DNA from: Cyanidioschyzon merolae
Taxonomy: Eukaryota
DNA length: 64,000 nucleotides
NCBI GenBank assembly: GCA_000091205.1
Contig: AP006499.2
Strand: one strand, 5' to 3'
Position 1 is the stretch's first letter. The number at the start of each line of letters is the position of its first letter. A program made the translations under genes and the position numbers. Of the stretch, positions 3,161 to 57,430 are shown in pieces. The notes beneath the pieces were generated by a model that saw nothing but the letters and a program-made list of their open reading frames with translations, ran no database searches and was not told where the DNA came from.

Positions 3161-3180
3161 GTTTTACACTCGCAACAGTG

Positions 3181-3227
3181 CACACACACACGTATACACA
3201 CACGTACACACACACGCACACACACAA
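3181..3227. repeat. Compound (CA)n/(CACG) microsatellite
   Basis: The sequence reads cacacacacacgtatacacacacgtacacacacacgcacacacacaac. It lies just upstream of the leuA start. Confidence 0.8.
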
Positions 3228-3493
3228 CAGGTGTCCTGCGTGCGCACTGAACGCTCGCCGTCGCGTTGCACGCATAGCGCCCTGCGATACGTGCGCGGGA
3301 TCGCCGGCGCACCGGCGATCTTTTGTTGGACAGAACGTCCACACGTACACCAGGCATCCCCGATGAGGCGCTTGAGATCAGCGCGCGTGCGCAAGCATCC
3401 ATCATTACTCGTTTGACCTGCTCGTTCAACCACCGATATACTCCCTGTGAAATACTGGATATTTGCGACTTTGCATAGTCCACCGTGTCTGAA

Positions 3494-3783
3494 TCTAGCA
3501 TACAAAATGTCGCCGATATTTCCAAAGTGAACACAGCAGGAAACCTGACCAACTTTGTCATACAAGTGAGGGCATCGGCACGTCGATACCGAGATCGCCT
3601 GTTTTCATTCATCGTGCACTGACACTAGCGCATGGCACGGGGATGCAGCATGTCGCTGGCATCATTATCACCGTTATCATCGTCGTCGCGCCTCGAGCCG
3701 AAGCCCTCACTTGTATGAGAAATTTGGTCAGGTTTCCGTTCTGCGTTTGCATTGGCGCGATCGGCGACATATTGGATACTAGA
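3494..3783. repeat. Long imperfect inverted repeat (arms ~3494-3577 and ~3700-3783, ~85% identical, 122-nt spacer); foldback or MITE-like element or regulatory palindrome
   Basis: The reverse complement of 3700-3770 (agtatccaatATGTCGCCGAT...GGAAACCTGACCAAATTTCTCATACAAGTGAGGGCTTC) aligns with 3507-3577 (ATGTCGCCGAT...GGAAACCTGACCAACTTTGTCATACAAGTGAGGGCATC). The opposite-strand short ORFs here encode near-identical peptides (LTCM..LVRFP), which is what the same DNA read on both strands would give. Confidence 0.7.
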
Positions 3784-5153
3784 GGCAGGATCGACGGACA
3801 ATGGAACGTGGGAAATAACCGAGATCTCTGAAGGATCCTATGACTCATGCAAGTTTACGGATGACGGGGCGTGGAACGATGAACCCGTCCCTGACCGTTG
3901 ATGTCAAGTGCGTTCCCGGGAGTCTCCGGTCCGTATAAACGACCTGCGCAACAACGGTATCCATATGGACACCGAAACGCTAGAGCGGGACCTGCTGCTG
4001 ACCTGCATGTGCCACAGGCGGGGTTTCGGAGAGGCGCTGCGGCTCCACGGCGGGCGCCGCTAAGCACCCAGACGCCATCCAGCGCATGTCGATATCTTGT
4101 CAATTATGCAACGGTTATGGATCGTACTGGCTGTACAAACCACTCCTCGGCGAGACGACGACACATCGTGCATGCAAGTAATGGGCAGCATAACTTTGGG
4201 CGATCCGCTACCGCTTCTATGCTGCGGTGGTAACGAGCACGCTGAGAGTCGCCTTGTCCGTCCATCTAATCTCAGCGTAAAAGTTGCGGGACTTTTGGAG
4301 CACGACAACGCATGCTTTGCTCCCCGCAGCGAACGGTAACAGGAAACAGAGCTTCCGGTCTTCTGGTCCAGGAGCATCCCGAACGCCATCGTTGCGCAGC
4401 GTGCGGGCTCGCACACCCCCTGAAACATGTGCCGTATTTGGAGAGTATCTTGAGTGCACGATTGCTGTATGGAACCAGAGAGGAGTGCTCAGATCCCCTG
4501 CAGTTGCTTGTATGCTACATTAATTTCGCAGCGCACCCTACCTCAGGAACAAAGGTTGGATACGAATATCACCAAAACAGCGCTAGCTGCATACCATTCA
4601 GCCATTGTTCGCATGATGGGTCTCGCGGTGCTCCCAGGATATGTAGAGGGAACGCGATCCCACATCCGCAAAGACATTCAAAAGCTCTGCTGTCTCTGGT
4701 TGTCTCTTTGGCAGTGGCGGTTGCACCTTCGACGTCCCAGCAAGCACCAGAGGTGGCCTCGGTAGCCGCAGGTTTATTGGATTCATCCGACCTCGATTCT
4801 CAGCGCACGACTGCTCCGGAGTTTGTGTAACCTACTGGATACTGCGGGAGCGCAATTAGCTCCATCCTGGATACCACTTCATAGCCTGGGTGCATCCATG
4901 AGGTTGAATCTGTTTCGCTCCGTCGATCTCCCGACTAGTGAGCACCACGAGTGCGCCACGGCGCTCTGGCGCAGCCGCAACGCTTGTTCTACATCTCTAC
5001 GTAGGCGGCTTCGAAGCCGTGTTTGGATGTTGGCTGTCTGGCAGTGTCGCGCACGGAACGGAACCTCAGTAGTCTTGTCGCTCATACGATATAAAAATTT
5101 CACAGGCACTCTCATCCGCTAGTTGGTAGCTGCATCCTTCAGTCTCTGTCAAG

Positions 5154-6365
5154 TTGGCGTCGACAAGTGGACGTTCGTGGAGCCGGCTGCTTTCCTCAGA
5201 CCTGATCCAGGCGTTGCATGCGCTCCGTCTGAGCCGGCCGACCCAGGTACAGGCCACGGCTATACCTGCGGCGCTAGAAGGTAATCATGTAGTTCTAACT
5301 GCGCAGACAGGCTCTGGAAAGACCCTGGGATATGTTCTTCCGTTACTAGAGCTACTACGGCGAGACCGTGCTCGTGAGGCACGAACGACCAGCCCAGCGT
5401 CGCCGTCGCCTCAGGCACTGATCGTCGTTCCGACTCGCGAGTTGGCTGCTCAAGTCTGCCGTGTCTGGAGCGACTTTACGGAATGCACGGGTCTGACGTG
5501 CTCGCTGCTGACGCGACAAGCGTTTCAAACTTCGAATGAAGTTGCCGCATGGGTGTCGCCCGCTAGGGATACTGCTGGAAAGGGAGAACCGGCGCTCTGG
5601 ACTCGCTTGCGCCATCTGCGCTACCTTGTTCTAGACGAGGCAGACAGCCTGTTTGCTATGCAGCAGCGCAACCAGCTTGCACCGCTTCCGTTGCATCGAC
5701 TCCAAGGCGGACAGCTGTGGTGCGTTGCCGCCACGATGACTCGCGGCTCACTCGCCCAGGTCGAAGCGCTGGCCCGAGCGCTGACGCCATCCCGAAAACT
5801 CTTCATTGCTCGAGATAATGGGCTCCACGAACCGCCACGAATTGTGCGTATTCGTTTCGAACTAGTTCAGCATCCGCCGCAGAAGGTGACGCGTTTGCTC
5901 GAATGGCTGCAAGCCGACGCTCGTGGTCTACTCCGAGACGGCAAAAGTACCCTCGTGTTCTGTAATTCCATCCAGACCTGTCGTTTCGTGCAGCACACGC
6001 TTCGTGAGCAGGGCGTCCTTGCCCTCGCGTGCCACGGCGGGATGCCTACACGTATGCGAGACGCGGCAGTAGAGCAATTCGCCAACGGCACCGCTGATGT
6101 GCTGATTTGTTCGGATTTGATGGCACGGGGAATCGATTGGCCCTTTGTCGGGCGAGTGCTCAGCTTTGACGCACCAGCAACATACCATCATTTTCTGCAC
6201 CGAGCAGGACGTCTACGTAGGGGCGGTGATTGCATCACGCTCATACGCAGAGCGCGCAGAGAGCAAGACCTCGCCATGATGATTGCGAAACGGTTTCCGG
6301 AGCGCACTCATTGGCAGGTAATGGAGCAGCAACCAAGCCTTGGGCGTGATCGGCTCCGGCCCTGA
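5154..6365 (+). CDS. DEAD-box ATP-dependent RNA helicase, minimal core only (~403 aa); 5' end of the gene model unresolved because there is no in-frame ATG before the conserved motifs
   Basis: It has the Q motif (LSRPTQVQATAIP), motif I AQTGSGKT, motif Ia PTRELA, motif II LVLDEAD, a motif III-like AAT, and motif VI HRAGRLRRGG. The open frame starts after a TAG at 5127-5129. The first possible initiators are CTG at 5130 and TTG at 5154. The first ATG codon comes after motif II. Confidence 0.8.
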   Translation: MASTSGRSWSRLLSSDLIQALHALRLSRPTQVQATAIPAALEGNHVVLTAQTGSGKTLGYVLPLLELLRRDRAREARTTSPASPSPQALIVVPTRELAAQVCRVWSDFTECTGLTCSLLTRQAFQTSNEVAAWVSPARDTAGKGEPALWTRLRHLRYLVLDEADSLFAMQQRNQLAPLPLHRLQGGQLWCVAATMTRGSLAQVEALARALTPSRKLFIARDNGLHEPPRIVRIRFELVQHPPQKVTRLLEWLQADARGLLRDGKSTLVFCNSIQTCRFVQHTLREQGVLALACHGGMPTRMRDAAVEQFANGTADVLICSDLMARGIDWPFVGRVLSFDAPATYHHFLHRAGRLRRGGDCITLIRRARREQDLAMMIAKRFPERTHWQVMEQQPSLGRDRLRP

Positions 6366-7540
6366 GCATCCGACGACTTGCTTTGACACATTCTCGCTTT
6401 TGGAAGAGGTGCCTGCTGTTGTGAAAGGGGTGTGTTTGGACGCTTTCTGGTCTTGCGGATACAGACGCGATTGTTCATGAGGGCTTCTGTGGTCGCAGGA
6501 ACGTTTCAAGGAATTGTGTAGCTTCGATCCCGACGTATTGGTGCCTCGCTCGCCGAAAGCTAACTCGTCTTTTGCTGTGCATAAATCTGTTTCTCTGATG
6601 AAGCTTTGCGGTGTTGTACTGCGACCGCACTGAAGTGATGCGACTTGGAGGCACGTTGGCCGGTCCGTCGCAGAAAATTAGCGCAGCTTTTCCGGAAGTG
6701 TCATGAACACTCCGCATCTATGGCACGATGCAGCGAACCACCGGAATGTCACTGCTCTATCGATCGCTTCTGTTTCGATTGTTTCGCTCTGGAATTGGAC
6801 ATGAAAAGCGTGATGCGGCCAACCGAGGCGAATCGCATGCAGGACGCAGTCTCTCGACTTTGTCTGCAATCGTCGGCACCAGTATTTGTCAGGATGATGA
6901 ACAGTGGAAGAACGACTCCGTTTTGTCGGGGTATGCAAGCCGTGTGCACGTTGAAAGATACTCGCAAGCCGGTGCGGTTGGAATCGCGGGGTGCACAATA
7001 CCCATGTCAGCATAAAATGGAACAGGTCTACTTACCTAGCAGGAGCGTACACCCCAAAGTTTTCGTCTCATTCCATCGCCATGGACGTCGGCCTTTACGG
7101 GATGTTTCTGCGACTGTTTCCCTTCTCTCTCTCTCTGTATATTCTCTGGCTCGCCATACGCCGGTTTCCCCTGTTCCTCCAGCTGCGTTGTCAGCAGTCT
7201 CAGAATGCTGTCGCCGGTGTTCAAGTCCCGAATTCATCGCTTCCGGCTGTTTCAGACAGAATTCGCGCAAAGACAGTAGTTGCGTTCTACGCCTCGGTTG
7301 CCGTTTGCACGACTTGCTTCGTGTAGATCCTCGTTGCGCCCTTCACAGTACTGACACGTGACCATGGTCGGGTATGCCCGTACGTCCTGGGCACCTGCTT
7401 CCCCGAGTGCTGCCTGCCACATGCACTGGACGCTCACCTCAGGGGACGACCCCATTTCCGTGCCCAGTGCCGTACGCGATGAACACGGTCTTCCGCTAGG
7501 CGATACACTCGGCGAGCATGCTGACTGCTGTGCGCGCTCA

Positions 7541-7620
7541 AACACACACACACACACACACAGAGACACACATACAGACACAGACACATACTGACACACA
7601 GATACACAGACTCACACACG
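7541..7620. repeat. CA-rich compound microsatellite
   Basis: The sequence reads caaacacacacacacacacacacagagacacacatacagacacagacacatactgacacacagatacacagactcacacacg. It lies in a ~3.3-kb spacer with no gene call. Confidence 0.8.
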
Positions 7621-13560: not shown

Positions 13561-15366
13561 CTAGGTAGGCGCTTGTAGCTTACGAAGGGCAGATTCGCGT
13601 AGAAAACTTGCGGGTGCTTGCTGGAGCGCCGCTATGAGCACGAGGCGTTGCTCCGCAACCACCGCAGGATAGCGATTGAGGAGCAGGTGCACCAGTTTGG
13701 CAAAACGCAAACCCGCACGTTGCAGCGTCGGCGCATTAGCATGTGCTTCGAGGGCTTGTGCCAGCCGAGCACCAACGTTCGAGTCCAGCACCGCCGGTTG
13801 CAGTCGCTTCAACGAGCACTCGAGGACCTGAAGGGTGTGCTCGGTCCAGGGTTCACATAGTTGCCGTTCCAGCAATTCGTGGAGCATCTCGCGCCGAAAC
13901 GCCGGCTCCCAGTCCCCCTCGAGGATCTGAACACAGAGCTCGGCCTGTGGGGCACCCAGCGGTTGCAAGCACGCCACGCTTGGACCCTGGCATGTAGCCG
14001 AGCAGGTCAGCAATGGATATAAAAGTTGCTCCAAGAGGATGCGCGGGCACTGACGCTGCAAGGAGCGAACGACGCCAAGCACTGAACGAGGTGCCGGTTG
14101 TTTGAGCTGCCGCACCAGCCGAAGCAGAAACGTCCGTGTCCCGCTTTCTATGCAACATACGCTTACCCTTTCGGGAAGTTTCAACATCGTCTCTAGACAA
14201 TAAAGCAAATCGACAGACGAGGCACTCTGGGCATCCAGAATTTCCCAGTCGGCTGCAGTACGAAGTCGATCAATGGCTAATGGCGGTGATGGTTCCTTCG
14301 AGCCGAGATCATCCTCGCGGAGCTTTCTGAGCCATTCGAGCACCTGCTGAGCGTCTTCGCCCCGCATATTCGGTGAACATGGGGCACGAAGCGCGCCTTG
14401 GTCTGCCACGACATGCGGCGATCCAGGGGAAACGTCTTCGCCCTCATTGGATGTTCTTGACGCAGGCGGTGGCGCGTGGGCTTCGGTCGACAGCGGCACT
14501 GCCTCCGCTACTTTGATGCGCTTGCCTTGATGCATCTCTGAATCAGGCGGTTCACCGAAGCGCGTCCAGCATTGCTCCCAGAGTATCTTCATGTATGGGT
14601 CGTCTGCGAAAGCTTCGCCCATGCGATCGTGGAGACAGGATTGACAAGCTGCACATCGACCAGCTATCCAGCGCGGCATCGTCAGCGGCAGCGGTAAAGG
14701 TGCCGGTGAAAGTGCCCGCAAACGGCCCTGTCGAGGCATGCCCAGGTCATTGCGGGTCAACGCAGTCCTCGAATGGATATCGGAGAGGATCGTCGTATCA
14801 TCGCCCGAGGTCTCGTTCGCGGAACCTGACCGCTTCAGCAGTGTGTCGACGGTATCGTGATAAGCTGGGTTCTCGGCAACTGGCACCCCAGCCGGTTGCT
14901 CGAGTACGAACGCTGCATTCGCTACCGCGTGCTGCGGTCTATGTGTACTAGACTGCGAGGTTCTGAGCACGTTTTCGTCGGTCCACGCACCTAACTGGCC
15001 CGACTGCAGCGGTTTTGTAGGTTTGTCTGTGCACAGTTCCCCAGGTGTCCTGCGCTGCACTTTAACGCCCGTCTGCAGCACCGCGTCCACTCGATCTAAT
15101 ATATAATCTTTCAGCAGAAAGTGCACTTTATCTTGACGGAAGCACTGTGGATACCGCAGTAAAATCAGAAAAGCGTGCCTTTGGACACGAGCAGGTAAAG
15201 CGCTCAGACGCACTCGTTGTGCTGTGTCTGAAGGGACTGCTGCGAGCCAACGGAACAGCGCTTCAGCGGCTGCTGGGTTCGTCTGCAGTGTTCTGTCTAC
15301 GAGAGGCCAAAGAAGCCAAGGCCCCTGGAGTAGCCGGTGCCAGTCGGGGCCGTGCTTTTGCTGCAT
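13561..15366 (-). CDS. Hypothetical protein (601 aa), no domain recognised
   Basis: A long ORF with an ATG start (reverse complement of 15364-15366) and coding-like GC content. It converges on the Tic110-like gene with a 258-bp gap. The product is Leu/Ala/Gln-rich and helical-looking. Function is unknown. Confidence 0.4.
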   Translation of the reverse strand: MQQKHGPDWHRLLQGPWLLWPLVDRTLQTNPAAAEALFRWLAAVPSDTAQRVRLSALPARVQRHAFLILLRYPQCFRQDKVHFLLKDYILDRVDAVLQTGVKVQRRTPGELCTDKPTKPLQSGQLGAWTDENVLRTSQSSTHRPQHAVANAAFVLEQPAGVPVAENPAYHDTVDTLLKRSGSANETSGDDTTILSDIHSRTALTRNDLGMPRQGRLRALSPAPLPLPLTMPRWIAGRCAACQSCLHDRMGEAFADDPYMKILWEQCWTRFGEPPDSEMHQGKRIKVAEAVPLSTEAHAPPPASRTSNEGEDVSPGSPHVVADQGALRAPCSPNMRGEDAQQVLEWLRKLREDDLGSKEPSPPLAIDRLRTAADWEILDAQSASSVDLLYCLETMLKLPERVSVCCIESGTRTFLLRLVRQLKQPAPRSVLGVVRSLQRQCPRILLEQLLYPLLTCSATCQGPSVACLQPLGAPQAELCVQILEGDWEPAFRREMLHELLERQLCEPWTEHTLQVLECSLKRLQPAVLDSNVGARLAQALEAHANAPTLQRAGLRFAKLVHLLLNRYPAVVAEQRLVLIAALQQAPASFLRESALRKLQAPT

Positions 15367-43058: not shown

Positions 43059-43667
43059 TTAAGAGGCGATTTTCTTGACAAAATTCGCGAATCGCTCTCC
43101 CTGGATTTCCGCCAAACGAAGCTCCATCTCGCTTGGTTGCCGCGACCCGTCGGGTCCGGCAAAGGTCGACGCGCCGTACGGCGTGCCCCCGTGAACCTGA
43201 CTCATATCCATCATGCTGGGATCTGCATAGCCGAGTGGAACGAAAATCATGCCGTGGTGCACAAACCGTGTTAGAGCGGTCAGCGCTGTGGTCTCCTGTC
43301 CGCCCTGCATGGTGGACGTCGAGACAAAAATACCCGCGGCCTTGCCTTGGAGCGCACCAGACATCCAGAGCCTGCCCGTTGCATCCCAGAACGCACTCAT
43401 CTGCGCCGGGGACTGTCCGTACCTTGTCGGGTAACCGAATAAAATTCCGTCATATTCAGCGAGCTTCGCCGGGTCCTGAAGCACTGGAATATCTTCCGGC
43501 TTTGGCGGTGCGTTCATCTTCTTCAGGACCTCTTCGGGCAGGGTCTCCGGCACCCGCATCAGGTCACAGTGCACGCCAGCCTTTTTCACACCTTGCACCT
43601 CATGACGCGCCAACTGCGTAATGTGGCCGTACATGGAGTAGATAAGCACGAGAACTTTGGGCGCCAT
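43059..43667 (-). CDS. WrbA/Pst2-type flavodoxin-like NAD(P)H:quinone oxidoreductase
   Basis: MAPKVLVLIYSMYGHITQLARHEV...GILFGYPTRYGQSPAQMSAFWDATGRLWMSGALQGKAAGIFVSTSTMQGGQETTALTALTRFVHHGMIFVPLGYAD...GGTPYGASTFAG matches the WrbA/YCP4/PST2 family. The ORF-track extension to 43934 starts at a GTG and has no internal Met. The first ATG is the reverse complement of 43665-43667 and gives a ~203-aa protein. Confidence 0.85.
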   Translation of the reverse strand: MAPKVLVLIYSMYGHITQLARHEVQGVKKAGVHCDLMRVPETLPEEVLKKMNAPPKPEDIPVLQDPAKLAEYDGILFGYPTRYGQSPAQMSAFWDATGRLWMSGALQGKAAGIFVSTSTMQGGQETTALTALTRFVHHGMIFVPLGYADPSMMDMSQVHGGTPYGASTFAGPDGSRQPSEMELRLAEIQGERFANFVKKIAS

Positions 43668-45701
43668 TTGCTGTTTTCTGTCGTTTGCCGCTGTCGTCAC
43701 AGGCTGCGTCGCTGCACTCGTACCGGTTTGCTGCACAGGATTTGACTCGTGCTTTGCACTTGATTTCTTGGGGTGCGTTCCCTCGTCCGTTGATTTAGAA
43801 GAGCTGTGAACACTGAATCCACAGAGGTTCCCTATTTTGACAGCGTCAGTCTCGATACAACACCGTTGAGAAATAATCAAAGAGCAAACAAACGTTCGTT
43901 GCCCGGTAGCTGAAAAGGTCCAGCGCCAGCGCACAATGTGTTTCTGGACGCATCGCGATGCTGCGTCGATGCGCAGCCGTCATTCCTGCGGTCCATCCGG
44001 TTGCGACATTTATGAATAAAAGGGACACACAGCGGTGGTGCTTGTTCCCTGGCATTTGTGCACAGTCACGCTGAGATACCGACGCGCTTTGCAGCAGCAT
44101 GACAAGGGAATGGAGATCGTGTGCATGACGCAAGCAAGCAGCCAAGCAAGCAGTTAGGTTCGTAGGCATCTGCAAGCATTTCATCATGAAATGGACCGAG
44201 TCTTCTAGCTAGGGTGACCATTCGAAACATTCGTTCTATTCCTAGTGTCACCAAGAGAAGCCACTGCGGGATTTTCAAGTGCCTGCTTCTTTCATTCCTC
44301 TCTCTCTCGTCTTCGGCTCTAAATACCGCGGTTTCTATTGCTGTTCCAGACCTGTAGTGAACTGCAGAATGAAGTTGATGGCAGCATGAACTTTTCGATG
44401 TTGCCGCGTCCGGCTGCTGTCGACGCATGCCATCCACAGGCAGTACGTGCAATCGAAGTATCTTCTTCGTATGGAGCCTGGGCGTACCCGTCGCAGCGGC
44501 GACCCGTGACTTTGAGTAGACGTTCTGATATGCCCACGATACCGCTTCCTCTGAACAGCGCCCTGTGGCGCGTCCACGCATGCTTTATTTCTCGGGACGA
44601 GCCCGTTCCGAGCTGAAAAGACACCCGTCGAGACTTGCCACCGTTTCCGCACCCGACTTGACGCTATATGATCCAGAGATTCTTTCGGAAGATCCACATG
44701 ACAAACGCGCTGTCCACTGCAAGCACAGGCGCACGATGTTCTATGCTGTACAGGATTTGCAGAACGCGATGTTGTCCATGGTGAAACGAGCACCGGACGG
44801 AATATCCTGCCTGCAGAGCCAATCGAGAAGTTTCGATCCGTCCACGCCTCGTTCGTGCGAACCGGAAGCGCACCCTGCACTTCAAAGGATCGCTGTGTTG
44901 ATTCACGTCCGAGTCCAAGAACCCATTTCCATGCAAACAGCAGAGACAGGAACCTCTGGAAAGCATATTCTATGAGAGGGATTACGCGGGAATCGAACGC
45001 TGTTTCCCTAATACCCACAAAGAGAGCGACTTGTGACCTTTACAATGGAATCGATTACTTCACGTTAGAAGGTTCAGTGGACTTTCGTTCTGAGCTTGTG
45101 ACCGAGTCCGCAAGGAACGACGTCGCCTATCTTACCTTGTGCATCGAGCAGTGTGCACTACTGGCCCAGCACGTTGCCTTGAGTGCGAAAGAAGGAAAAA
45201 TTCAAGCATGTGTGAACTGCGCGTGGTACACGTAGGCCAAGAAGCTTTGAGGCTTGAACGTATGCATTAGCTAAAGAAATTGGTCTTTTACGAACTCTTG
45301 TTAAGAGGCGTCGTGCGTCACCTCGTTACCGACGACGTCACGAATGCTGGCAGCTAGGTGTCAGAGGAGCTACCCAAAAACACAGCGGAGAAGCCTCAGA
45401 CCACGTGACAGATCCGTAAGCCCGCATTGCTACACGTCGAATATCGATGCTGTACATCTACAACCAGTTCGGAAAACTCCGTCATGCAATCAAAAGTCGA
45501 CTAGTTCCATGGTGCATTTTCATGTGACACGGGTATCCACTGGCGGGCACGCTCGTGCTCCCCGAGTTGCAACTAGTGCGGTGCGCTTTTCTGGTGCACG
45601 CCGGGGGCGTCGGTTCCCAGGAAACCGCACGCCCGAATCTCGCTCCTTCATACACGTCCGAGTTCTGACCTAAATCTAGTCTTCGCTTGGATGGCGAGTT
45701 T

Positions 45702-56065: not shown

Positions 56066-57430
56066 TTAGCGAAGCTCGGCCACGTCCGACATCTCCAAAC
56101 GGATACATTCACGCACCTGATTCTGAATACGATTGATTTCTTCGTCGGTTAGAGAGCGGTCCGGGCTCCGGTATGTGATCCGATAGCAGATGCTCCGTCG
56201 CTTCGTTTTGGGATGGACAAATTCATCCACTCGCGAAATGTCCTCCACAAGATCACCGGCTAGATTTCGCACGAGCTCGCAGAGATCATTCTCGTGGAAC
56301 AGACGGCCACTTGTGCTGCCGTTCCCGTCGCTGGCCTCGGGTTGGTCCTTCACCCACATAGATACGTCCTTGTAGACGGGTGGATACTTACTATACGGTT
56401 GAAACTGCGTGATGACTCCGTCCTGAAACTGCTTGATGAAACGCTTGTCTGAGCTCCAGAATAATCGGATGTCGGGTACATCGAACAGCACCATGGCGAG
56501 TCGCTCGAGGCCGAGCCCAAACGCCCAGCCCGAGTGCTTAGCGGGATCCACGTCGCCAGCCCGCAGCACATCGGGTTGAATCACACCGCAACCGAGTACC
56601 TCGAGCCAGTCGCCTTGCCACAGCACCTCTAATTCGAGCGAGTGTCGCGTAAACGGAAACTCGGCGTCGACCCATCTGACCGGGATCGGTGCTGCATCGG
56701 CGTCACTCAAAGCGGACGTCCTCGGGGATTTGTCCGCTTCGGAGTTCTTCGGCCAGCGAAAGAGGTACTGCGCCAGCCCGTACAGCGTCTCCTTCAGGTC
56801 TTCCAGGACCCACGCTTCAGACGGCGCATCCGCAAAAACGCGCACACCATCCATTTGATGAAAGATTGGATAGTGCTTTTTATCGATGGAATCGCGTCGA
56901 TAGACATCTCCTGTGACGAGGAACGCGCGGTAGCCCTGCCGCAGCAGCTCCGTATCATGTGCAGTCGTATGGGCACGCAGCACCGTCGCCTCATCCAGGT
57001 AGTACGTGTCTGTCGGACGGCGGGACGGGTGGTCCGGAGCGACCAGCAGTTCGTCAAAGCAAGCGCGCGTACTGACGATCGGCGGCAAGTCATGAAACTT
57101 TGCAAACTGAACCGGTGGTCGCCCTTGCTTCGCACCTAGCTCGTTTTCAAAATAAGCTTCGATGATTTTTCGCAGCGTGCACAGCGGATGATGCACGCGG
57201 TTGTGGAGCTTTTCTGATGGGGTTGCTTTCGCTTTCTCCAAAATGTGCGGCGGAATATTGCTCTTCGTTATGGTGGACTGTGCGCGGAGTGCTCGAGCGC
57301 CGCGCCCTCGTGACAGGTGACGGGCGAGCGTTCCGTGTGTGCTGTTCACCGCAGGCAACCAAAGTCGTTGTGCTGGGACCGTCCGCCATCGCTGTGCTAC
57401 GATGAACCCAATACCCCAGTTTTCCACCAT
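56066..57430 (-). CDS. FARS2: Organellar (mitochondrial-type, monomeric) phenylalanyl-tRNA synthetase, FARS2-like
   Basis: FDELLVAPDHPSRRPTDTYYLDEATVLRAHTTAHDTELLRQGYRAFLVTGDVYRRDSIDKKHYPIFHQMDGVRVF matches human FARS2 ([39 protein letters not shown]...[30 protein letters not shown]). The ORF-track start at 57448 is a TTG. The first ATG is the reverse complement of 57428-57430 and gives MVENWGIGFIVAQRWRTVPAQRLW..., a plausible presequence. It is ~454 aa. Confidence 0.9.
   Translation of the reverse strand: MVENWGIGFIVAQRWRTVPAQRLWLPAVNSTHGTLARHLSRGRGARALRAQSTITKSNIPPHILEKAKATPSEKLHNRVHHPLCTLRKIIEAYFENELGAKQGRPPVQFAKFHDLPPIVSTRACFDELLVAPDHPSRRPTDTYYLDEATVLRAHTTAHDTELLRQGYRAFLVTGDVYRRDSIDKKHYPIFHQMDGVRVFADAPSEAWVLEDLKETLYGLAQYLFRWPKNSEADKSPRTSALSDADAAPIPVRWVDAEFPFTRHSLELEVLWQGDWLEVLGCGVIQPDVLRAGDVDPAKHSGWAFGLGLERLAMVLFDVPDIRLFWSSDKRFIKQFQDGVITQFQPYSKYPPVYKDVSMWVKDQPEASDGNGSTSGRLFHENDLCELVRNLAGDLVEDISRVDEFVHPKTKRRSICYRITYRSPDRSLTDEEINRIQNQVRECIRLEMSDVAELR

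Follow-up and report, generated by a model that had tools for sequence, protein, structure and literature searches.

A conserved UUG codon as candidate translation start of a half-annotated DEAD-box helicase gene in Cyanidioschyzon merolae

A few eukaryotic proteins are made only from near-cognate start codons. The main open reading frames (ORFs) of mammalian EIF4G2/DAP5 and TEAD1 begin at GUG and AUU, respectively, and in yeast the mitochondrial isoforms of GRS1 and ALA1 are initiated from UUG and ACG. Among DEAD-box proteins, human DDX28 and trypanosome mt-LAF2 help to assemble the large subunit of the mitochondrial ribosome. Here we describe a gene for a divergent, DDX28-like DEAD-box RNA helicase in C. 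merolae, located on the plus strand of a 64,000-nt stretch of contig AP006499.2 (assembly GCA_000091205.1; hereafter the window), in which no ATG precedes the conserved core. A preliminary description of the window offered a 5′ intron, non-AUG initiation or an assembly error as explanations. Of these, non-AUG initiation is the best supported, at the TTG at 5154, where codon and context are fixed between lineages. On balance, comparative evidence favors a UUG start at 5154 on an unspliced transcript that would encode a 403-aa protein (proposed coding sequence [CDS] 5154-6365, plus strand, 403 codons and a stop).

The helicase frame is closed upstream by an in-frame TAG (5127-5129, plus strand), unchanged in 11 C. 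merolae-type sequences, and is open from 5130 to 6365 (411 codons). As first described, its earliest in-frame ATG lies beyond motif II: the ATG is at 5658, codon 177 of 411, and the DEAD motif is at 5634-5645. The translation of 5130-6365 matches both RecA-like domains in Pfam (DEAD, PF00270, 2.8e-26; Helicase_C, PF00271, 4e-21). Upstream of the ATG are the Q motif (W9, encoded at 5178, and PTQVQ at 5238-5252), motif I (AQTGSGKT, of the AxTGSGKT type, 5301-5324) and motif Ia (PTRELA, 5430-5447); motif VI (HRAGRLRR, fitting HRxGRxxR) was also located. Other genes of the window have a usable ATG, as had been stated. In the other large, real-looking ORFs the first ATG is at most 65 codons into the open frame, the exception being an FMN reductase ORF, in which it lies directly 5′ of the Pfam domain. 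Because the first ATG is early or directly before the domain in all of these, the helicase is a clear outlier.

The locus was compared with two assemblies of Cyanidiococcus yangmingshanensis (L011 and L013) and with a third lineage (L012), found in a JGI metagenome. The gene order 2-isopropylmalate synthase (IPMS), helicase and Tic110 is conserved in all of them, and all likewise lack an upstream ATG. Both Cyanidiococcus genomes have a TAG nine codons 5′ of the homologous TTG and no ATG before the core; L012 has 48 open codons 5′ of the TTG, again with no ATG. The comparison with an orthologous locus proposed in the preliminary description thus extends the ATG-less structure to two further lineages. 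A profile search of the database recovered orthologs in these three lineages only, with scores falling from 732 to 139 bits and generic DEAD-box proteins beyond; it yielded no Galdieria or Cyanidium ortholog that would show the ancestral start. A metagenome scan with the pattern YLVLDEAD found 571 generic DEAD-box genes (26-34% identity) and no members of the clade, and no closer relatives were present in the databases searched. The best match among solved structures (Protein Data Bank) is human DDX28 (1.4e-37, a one-way best match), and mt-LAF2 matches at ~1e-26; identity to the solved-structure matches is only ~30%.

Two departures are common to the three lineages. Aligned to the nearest outgroup-like protein (P0005), all three have lost a segment of ~20 residues with the RNA-binding elements motif Ib (TPGR) and GG, which corresponds to GFDLVVGTPGSF (deletion region ~5500-5630, between motifs Ia and II). 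In all three, motif III is AAT instead of SAT (5727-5735, plus strand, placed by the ortholog alignment). Judged from these comparisons and from the substitution patterns below, the helicase is a divergent, clade-restricted DEAD-box variant under purifying selection. Its function is a matter of guesswork by analogy: it might have an organellar role, for example in organellar ribosome assembly as for DDX28.

Current annotations include only part of this protein. By exact-sequence look-up, the reference model is XP_005538235.1 / BAM82199.1 (5658-6365, plus strand, 235 aa), named "similar to ATP-dependent RNA helicase deaD". It covers the C-terminal domain only and leaves out the N-terminal RecA-like domain (5154-5657, plus strand). 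It starts at an internal Met conserved in all lineages, and the same Met is the start of the 236-aa Cyanidiococcus model CCYA05G1529 (P0004). A second Cyanidiococcus model (P0003, KAF-type, 461 aa, named "DDX41") uses a 42-nt "intron" to bridge from an upstream ATG to the helicase and a second "intron" of 25 nt. Because the latter merely patches a frameshift in that assembly, the two mini-introns are artifacts of the gene predictor. The conflicting annotations (5658-6365 in the window, 4001-4711 in L013 and 4001-5453 in L011) all appear wrong, in C. merolae as in Cyanidiococcus.

Were the reference model right, only the 235-aa C-terminal domain would be produced, with ATG 5658 as its start, and the half before it would be an untranslated relic. 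That ATG is indeed the first in-frame AUG, and its Met is conserved in all lineages. However, all lineages have an open frame over the 168 codons before it and keep motifs Q, I, Ia and II there. When C. merolae is compared with the other two lineages, the proportion of nonsynonymous differences (pN) is 0.27-0.29 in the N-terminal half and 0.24 in the annotated half, with synonymous sites saturated (pS of 0.71-0.75), so that the two halves have matching pN/pS. Across the 11 C. merolae-type sequences, the density of single-nucleotide polymorphisms (SNPs) is 0.40% in the N-terminal half (5154-5657) and 0.28% in the C-terminal half (5658-6365), compared with 0.29% in the mature region of IPMS, 1.25% in the IPMS presequence and 1.65% in intergenic DNA. 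The helicase ORF has four SNPs, all of them synonymous, including the two 5′ of the annotated ATG. Furthermore, there are six out-of-frame ATGs from 5154 to 5658, and RecA2 by itself does not make a functional DEAD-box ATPase. We consider this alternative very unlikely. The N-terminal half is clearly under purifying selection like the annotated half and, judging from that pattern, must be translated. Therefore, the 235-aa model is a truncation and the start is upstream of the Q motif; this suggests an annotation artifact, produced by requiring an ATG, that cuts the protein in half. Had transcripts proved unspliced, with a first AUG downstream of motif I, the preliminary description would have taken the gene for a truncated, nonfunctional copy, an interpretation that is wrong given the purifying selection on the N-terminal half.

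All lineages share one element, which surrounds TTG 5154-5156. The block AGTTGGCG (5152-5159, plus strand), which contains the TTG, does not vary among C. merolae, the two Cyanidiococcus genomes and L012. Position -3 is A (5151) in C. merolae and Cyanidiococcus and G in L012, and +4 is G; contexts across lineages are AAG-TTG-G, AAG-TTG-G and GAG-TTG-G, and TTG-GCG is identical in the four genomes or contigs. A purine at -3 is also present in nine of 12 ATG starts among the listed ORFs of the window. In the 1233-nt codon alignment, the block is one of three invariant runs of at least 8 nt. The other two are in the conserved C-terminal domain, and this one is where homology begins, in the most weakly conserved stretch of the protein. 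Overall, third positions are invariant in 21% of codons, and the codon is identical across the three lineages in only four of 41 invariant Leu columns and three of 26 invariant Ala columns. Between-lineage homology starts ~13 nt 5′ of the TTG; upstream of that point, comparing the complete intergenic regions as nucleotides and in translation revealed no conserved block in any frame. In-frame stops lie eight (C. merolae) or nine (Cyanidiococcus) codons 5′ of the TTG, and the start is therefore confined to a short, ATG-free interval, within which the TTG is the sole candidate start codon common to all three lineages. In P0005, whose contig is not syntenic with the helicase locus, the initial Met aligns within one residue of the TTG codon, and a short N-terminus is therefore normal for such helicases.

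Initiation could also be from another non-AUG codon, mainly the CUG at 5130-5132 (plus strand), which would add LHPSVSVK, or from several near-cognates in parallel. The preliminary description had named CTG 5130 and TTG 5154 as the only possible initiators before motif I. They are the only good near-cognates 5′ of the aromatic residue of the Q motif, but additional in-frame CTG or TTG codons occur at 5187, 5202, 5214 and 5229. CUG is generally the most efficient near-cognate start, and weak peptide and DNA similarity (SV.V..K, GTYTYT) reaches ~12 nt 5′ of the TTG. Yet CTG 5130, directly 3′ of the TAG, is in poor context (T at -3, C at +4), is replaced by GGG in Cyanidiococcus and, if the TATA-like element described below is functional, would be at or before the start of transcription. 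Initiation from a non-AUG codon other than UUG 5154 is quite unlikely.

An error in the reference that hides an ATG, one of the explanations first offered, is refuted. Ten independent ENA/Logan contigs from different samples, which with the window make up the 11 C. merolae-type sequences, are collinear with the window at 98.8-99.6% identity. They have no indels across 4640-6400, both TAGs are invariant and there is not one SNP across 5079-5356. The ATG-less structure also recurs in three other genomes or contigs, namely the two of Cyanidiococcus and that of the third lineage. All 11 retrieved contigs (L001-L010 and L014, the last a short, internal fragment) are collinear with or contained in the genomic sequence.

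Among the C. merolae-type environmental contigs, 4640-5078 has 17 SNPs in ~440 nt, a locally very high density that ends at a sharp boundary at ~5079, beyond which the sequence is invariant. The first 20 nt of contig SRR29605866_12301 (L009) are an adapter or chimeric end that mismatches the genome and gives false variants. Microsatellites of (CA)n/(GT)n and (CT)n at 3165-3200, 7120-7126 and 7520-7600 differ in length among strains, with indels at 3179-3195, 7124-7125 and 7566 that coincide with contig ends in several assemblies.

Splicing was the option that the preliminary description put first, in the form of a rare 5′ intron bringing in an exon for a targeting peptide. Published surveys describe what such an intron should look like. 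The counts from RNA-seq are 39 introns for C. merolae and 40 for Cyanidiococcus (Slat et al., bioRxiv 10.64898/2026.05.17.725761; PMC8831791), and Cyanidioschyzon, Cyanidiococcus and Cyanidium have 39-54 spliceosomal introns per genome, from searches that allowed introns down to 20 nt (Slat et al., bioRxiv 10.64898/2026.05.17.725761). GUAAGU is strongly conserved, ACUAACC virtually invariant and AG invariant (Slat et al., bioRxiv 10.64898/2026.05.17.725761; PMC8831791), and 85% of introns that interrupt coding sequences contain an in-frame stop (Slat et al., bioRxiv 10.64898/2026.05.17.725761). At the helicase locus, the two acceptors proposed earlier are both present (cag at 5139-5141 and aag at 5151-5153). 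However, on the plus strand of 3161-5153 (~2 kb) no hexamer is within one mismatch of GTAAGT, in the 120 nt 5′ of the candidate acceptors no heptamer is within two mismatches of ACTAACC, and there is no CTAAC on the plus strand between 2913 and 5295. Cyanidiococcus has a single GTAAGG at -42 with no branch-like element after it, and L012 has neither a GTAAGT-like nor a branch-like signal nearby. In these lineages, no branch-site match with one mismatch or fewer is near the acceptor (the nearest in L012 is 500 nt upstream; Cyanidiococcus has none), and the only match with two mismatches (ACGAACT) lies 5′ of the candidate 5′ splice site. Nor is there an upstream ATG exon under coding constraint: none is conserved, and the sole ATG ORF has 2.9% SNPs versus 1.65% in intergenic DNA. 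A canonical intron upstream of 5154 is unlikely, and an exon for a targeting peptide joined by one is disfavored, as GTAAGT- and ACTAACC-like signals are absent from these stretches and no exon is conserved between lineages.

A tiny, noncanonical 5′ intron ending at AG 5152-5153 could instead join a small ATG exon to the helicase. In C. merolae, the only in-phase candidate is 5069-5153 (plus strand, 85 nt, GTAGTC...AAG), which lacks the splice signals of the lineage; its product would be M(5027)LAVWQCRARNGTS|LAS..., or a longer form from ATG 4898. The corresponding intervals are 42 nt in Cyanidiococcus (GTAAGG...AAG, as in P0003) and 44 nt in L012 (GTATTC...GAG). In-phase GTA...AG intervals that would connect an upstream ATG with the TTG codon can thus be traced in all three lineages, an invariant AG (-2/-1) comes after a T-rich stretch, and a gene predictor chose such a solution in Cyanidiococcus. 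An N-terminal presequence is expected of a DDX28-like protein, and the short N-terminus is the main argument for an intron if the protein is organellar. Three of five SNPs in the C. merolae upstream ORF are synonymous, which is not significant. Against these points, the GUAAGU and ACUAACC signals are missing, without a near branch site in the other lineages either; the candidate 5′ exons share no sequence, and that of C. merolae is more variable than intergenic DNA. In-phase GTs are expected by chance in ORFs this long, and the predictor's 25-nt intron just patches a frameshift. The AG followed by a conserved exon, invariant in all lineages, is explained equally well by the context of a start codon. 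Surveys by RNA-seq that admitted introns of at least 20 nt give only 39 introns for C. merolae. Such an intron is, in our judgment, unlikely. Its more elaborate form would make AG|TTGGCG the acceptor of unrecognized introns of 42-85 nt (GTA...AG), conserved in position in three lineages, free of GUAAGU and ACUAACC, spliced by a U1-less minimal spliceosome and attaching a fast-evolving targeting peptide; we regard that as quite improbable.

Other splicing leads in the window were set aside. GTAAGT occurs three times versus 13.8 expected and CTAAC 29 times versus 64, but all YTAAN 5-mers are at 0.3-0.5 of expectation; this is therefore a general TAA/TA effect and no specific avoidance of splice signals can be claimed. 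A CTAAC...CAG at 5295-5307 in the helicase ORF and a GTAAGT/CTAAC pair at 56391/56152 (minus strand), considered as intron ends, are inside conserved coding sequence.

If the UUG is the start, the mRNA is probably unspliced with a short, AUG-free leader. The stretch 5′ of the TTG is free of ATG for 127 nt in C. merolae, 69 nt in Cyanidiococcus and 89 nt in L012. A TATA-box-like element, ATATAAAAA, is at 5090-5098 (plus strand), 56-64 nt 5′ of TTG 5154; like its part TATAAAAA at 5091-5098, it is inside the SNP-free stretch 5079-5356 of the 11 strains. The element is unconserved in Cyanidiococcus and L012, and TATAAA is not enriched in the window (eight in 64 kb versus 6.2 expected). It may be a TATA box, in which case transcription would start near 5120-5130. 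Scans of the region with Rfam and for tRNAs and bacterial promoters or terminators gave no matches, and a literature search for non-AUG starts, Kozak context and transcription start sites in C. merolae found nothing.

Upstream of the helicase, frame +2 has an ORF at 4898-5122 (plus strand; ATGs at 4898 and 5027, stop at 5120-5122) that is unconserved and hypervariable, with a SNP density of 2.9% (five SNPs in the 171 nt of 4898-5068) versus 0.3-0.4% in coding and 1.65% in intergenic sequences. It is either an upstream ORF (uORF) or just lies 5′ of where transcription begins. A start at an upstream AUG followed by recoding (stop-codon readthrough, or else a frameshift or bypass from the frame +2 ORF) is suggested by Cyanidiococcus, where a single TAG separates an in-frame ATG (MLRRRKRTGVRLA) from the helicase frame. 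In C. merolae, however, the stretch between in-frame stops 5070-5072 and 5127-5129 has no ATG, and no single shift works since the frame +2 ORF ends with TAG 5120-5122, 5′ of the opening of the helicase frame at 5130; the earlier statement that no simple frameshift could join the two holds. L012 has no in-frame ATG in its 48 open codons. Given these differences in upstream frames, no recoding mechanism is common to the three lineages, and recoding is extremely improbable.

Several points weigh against a UUG start. UUG is usually an inefficient start codon, and no stabilizing hairpin was found 3′ of the TTG (fold z-scores of +1.0, -0.4 and -1.5, with no real covariation). The invariant AG 5152-5153 after a T-rich stretch (GTYTYT...RAG) also fits a 3′ splice site. 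Only eight residues would precede the aromatic residue of the Q motif, and DDX28-type helicases normally have an N-terminal organelle-targeting extension. Lastly, an upstream ATG is present at -69 to -127 nt in all three lineages; were transcription to start further upstream, these ATGs would act as uORFs.

With initiation at UUG 5154-5156, the codon would be read as Met by the initiator tRNA in the strong context (A/G)AG-UUG-GCG, and the protein would begin M-A-S-T-S-G-R-S-W. Scanning ribosomes that miss the UUG would encounter short ORFs with out-of-frame AUGs (at 5218, 5287 and others) before reaching AUG 5658. The replacement of an ancestral AUG probably predates the divergence of Cyanidioschyzon and Cyanidiococcus, a split (with Cyanidium) placed at ~320 My (Slat et al., bioRxiv 10.64898/2026.05.17.725761).

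If true, a nuclear, housekeeping-type gene would depend wholly on a non-AUG start, which is rare, and its UUG would have been kept through the divergence of Cyanidioschyzon and Cyanidiococcus. We found no case of a non-AUG start in Cyanidiophyceae in the literature, in a narrow search on "non-AUG". Because C. merolae allows precise gene targeting, the TTG codon is directly mutable. The reference proteomes of C. merolae (XP_005538235.1) and Cyanidiococcus (CCYA05G1529) list only half of the helicase, and studies of organellar ribosome biogenesis and inventories of helicases in these algae would misjudge it. The annotation would be corrected in two species, and the UUG start would join the set of non-AUG-initiated main ORFs.

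Genes of the window carry CMQ locus tags of C. merolae 10D, as determined by exact-sequence look-ups; a literature search on the tag of the helicase gene found nothing. The helicase is located between IPMS (XP_005538234, 1199-3160, minus strand) and a gene for a Tic110-like protein (XP_005538236, 9647-13303, plus strand), which is followed by CMQ343C (13561-15366, minus strand); the C. merolae Tic110 is tagged CMQ342C in PMC3823011. The intergenic region between IPMS and the helicase is unusually long (~2 kb) and includes a 172-codon ATG ORF (4312-4830, plus strand) with no Pfam match and no conservation in Cyanidiococcus or L012, which is probably not a gene. Elsewhere, the ORF with an FMN_red (NADPH-dependent FMN reductase) domain is at 43059-43934 (minus strand), and its first ATG is at 43667, just before the domain. 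An adjoining ORF of 227 codons (44335-45018, minus strand), which lacks a Pfam match and has no ATG before codon 203, is probably spurious.

Relative to described systems, the locus shares some features and departs in others. Like DDX28 and mt-LAF2, the protein has both RecA domains, with motifs Q, I, Ia, II, IV, V and VI, but it lacks the 145-residue N-terminal extension of DDX28. Like the spliceosomal introns of Cyanidiophyceae, it has an AG before the first conserved codon and an in-frame stop just upstream, but no GUAAGU-like site, ACUAACC-like site or conserved 5′ exon. A likeness to the translation initiator of short 5′ untranslated regions of mammals (TISU, SAASATGGCGGC) is offered as a lead only: CAAG-TTG-GCGTC matches 10 of 12 TISU positions and the position of the TATA-like element, ~60 nt upstream, would imply a very short leader, although the start codon here is TTG and not ATG, and to our knowledge TISU has not been described in red algae. 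In comparison with EIF4G2, TEAD1, GRS1 and ALA1, initiation here is deduced from comparative genomics, and UUG is unusual as the sole start of a main ORF. What the helicase gene has in common with those genes is the absence of an in-frame AUG before the conserved domain and a near-cognate codon, with a purine at -3 and G at +4, that is conserved across species.

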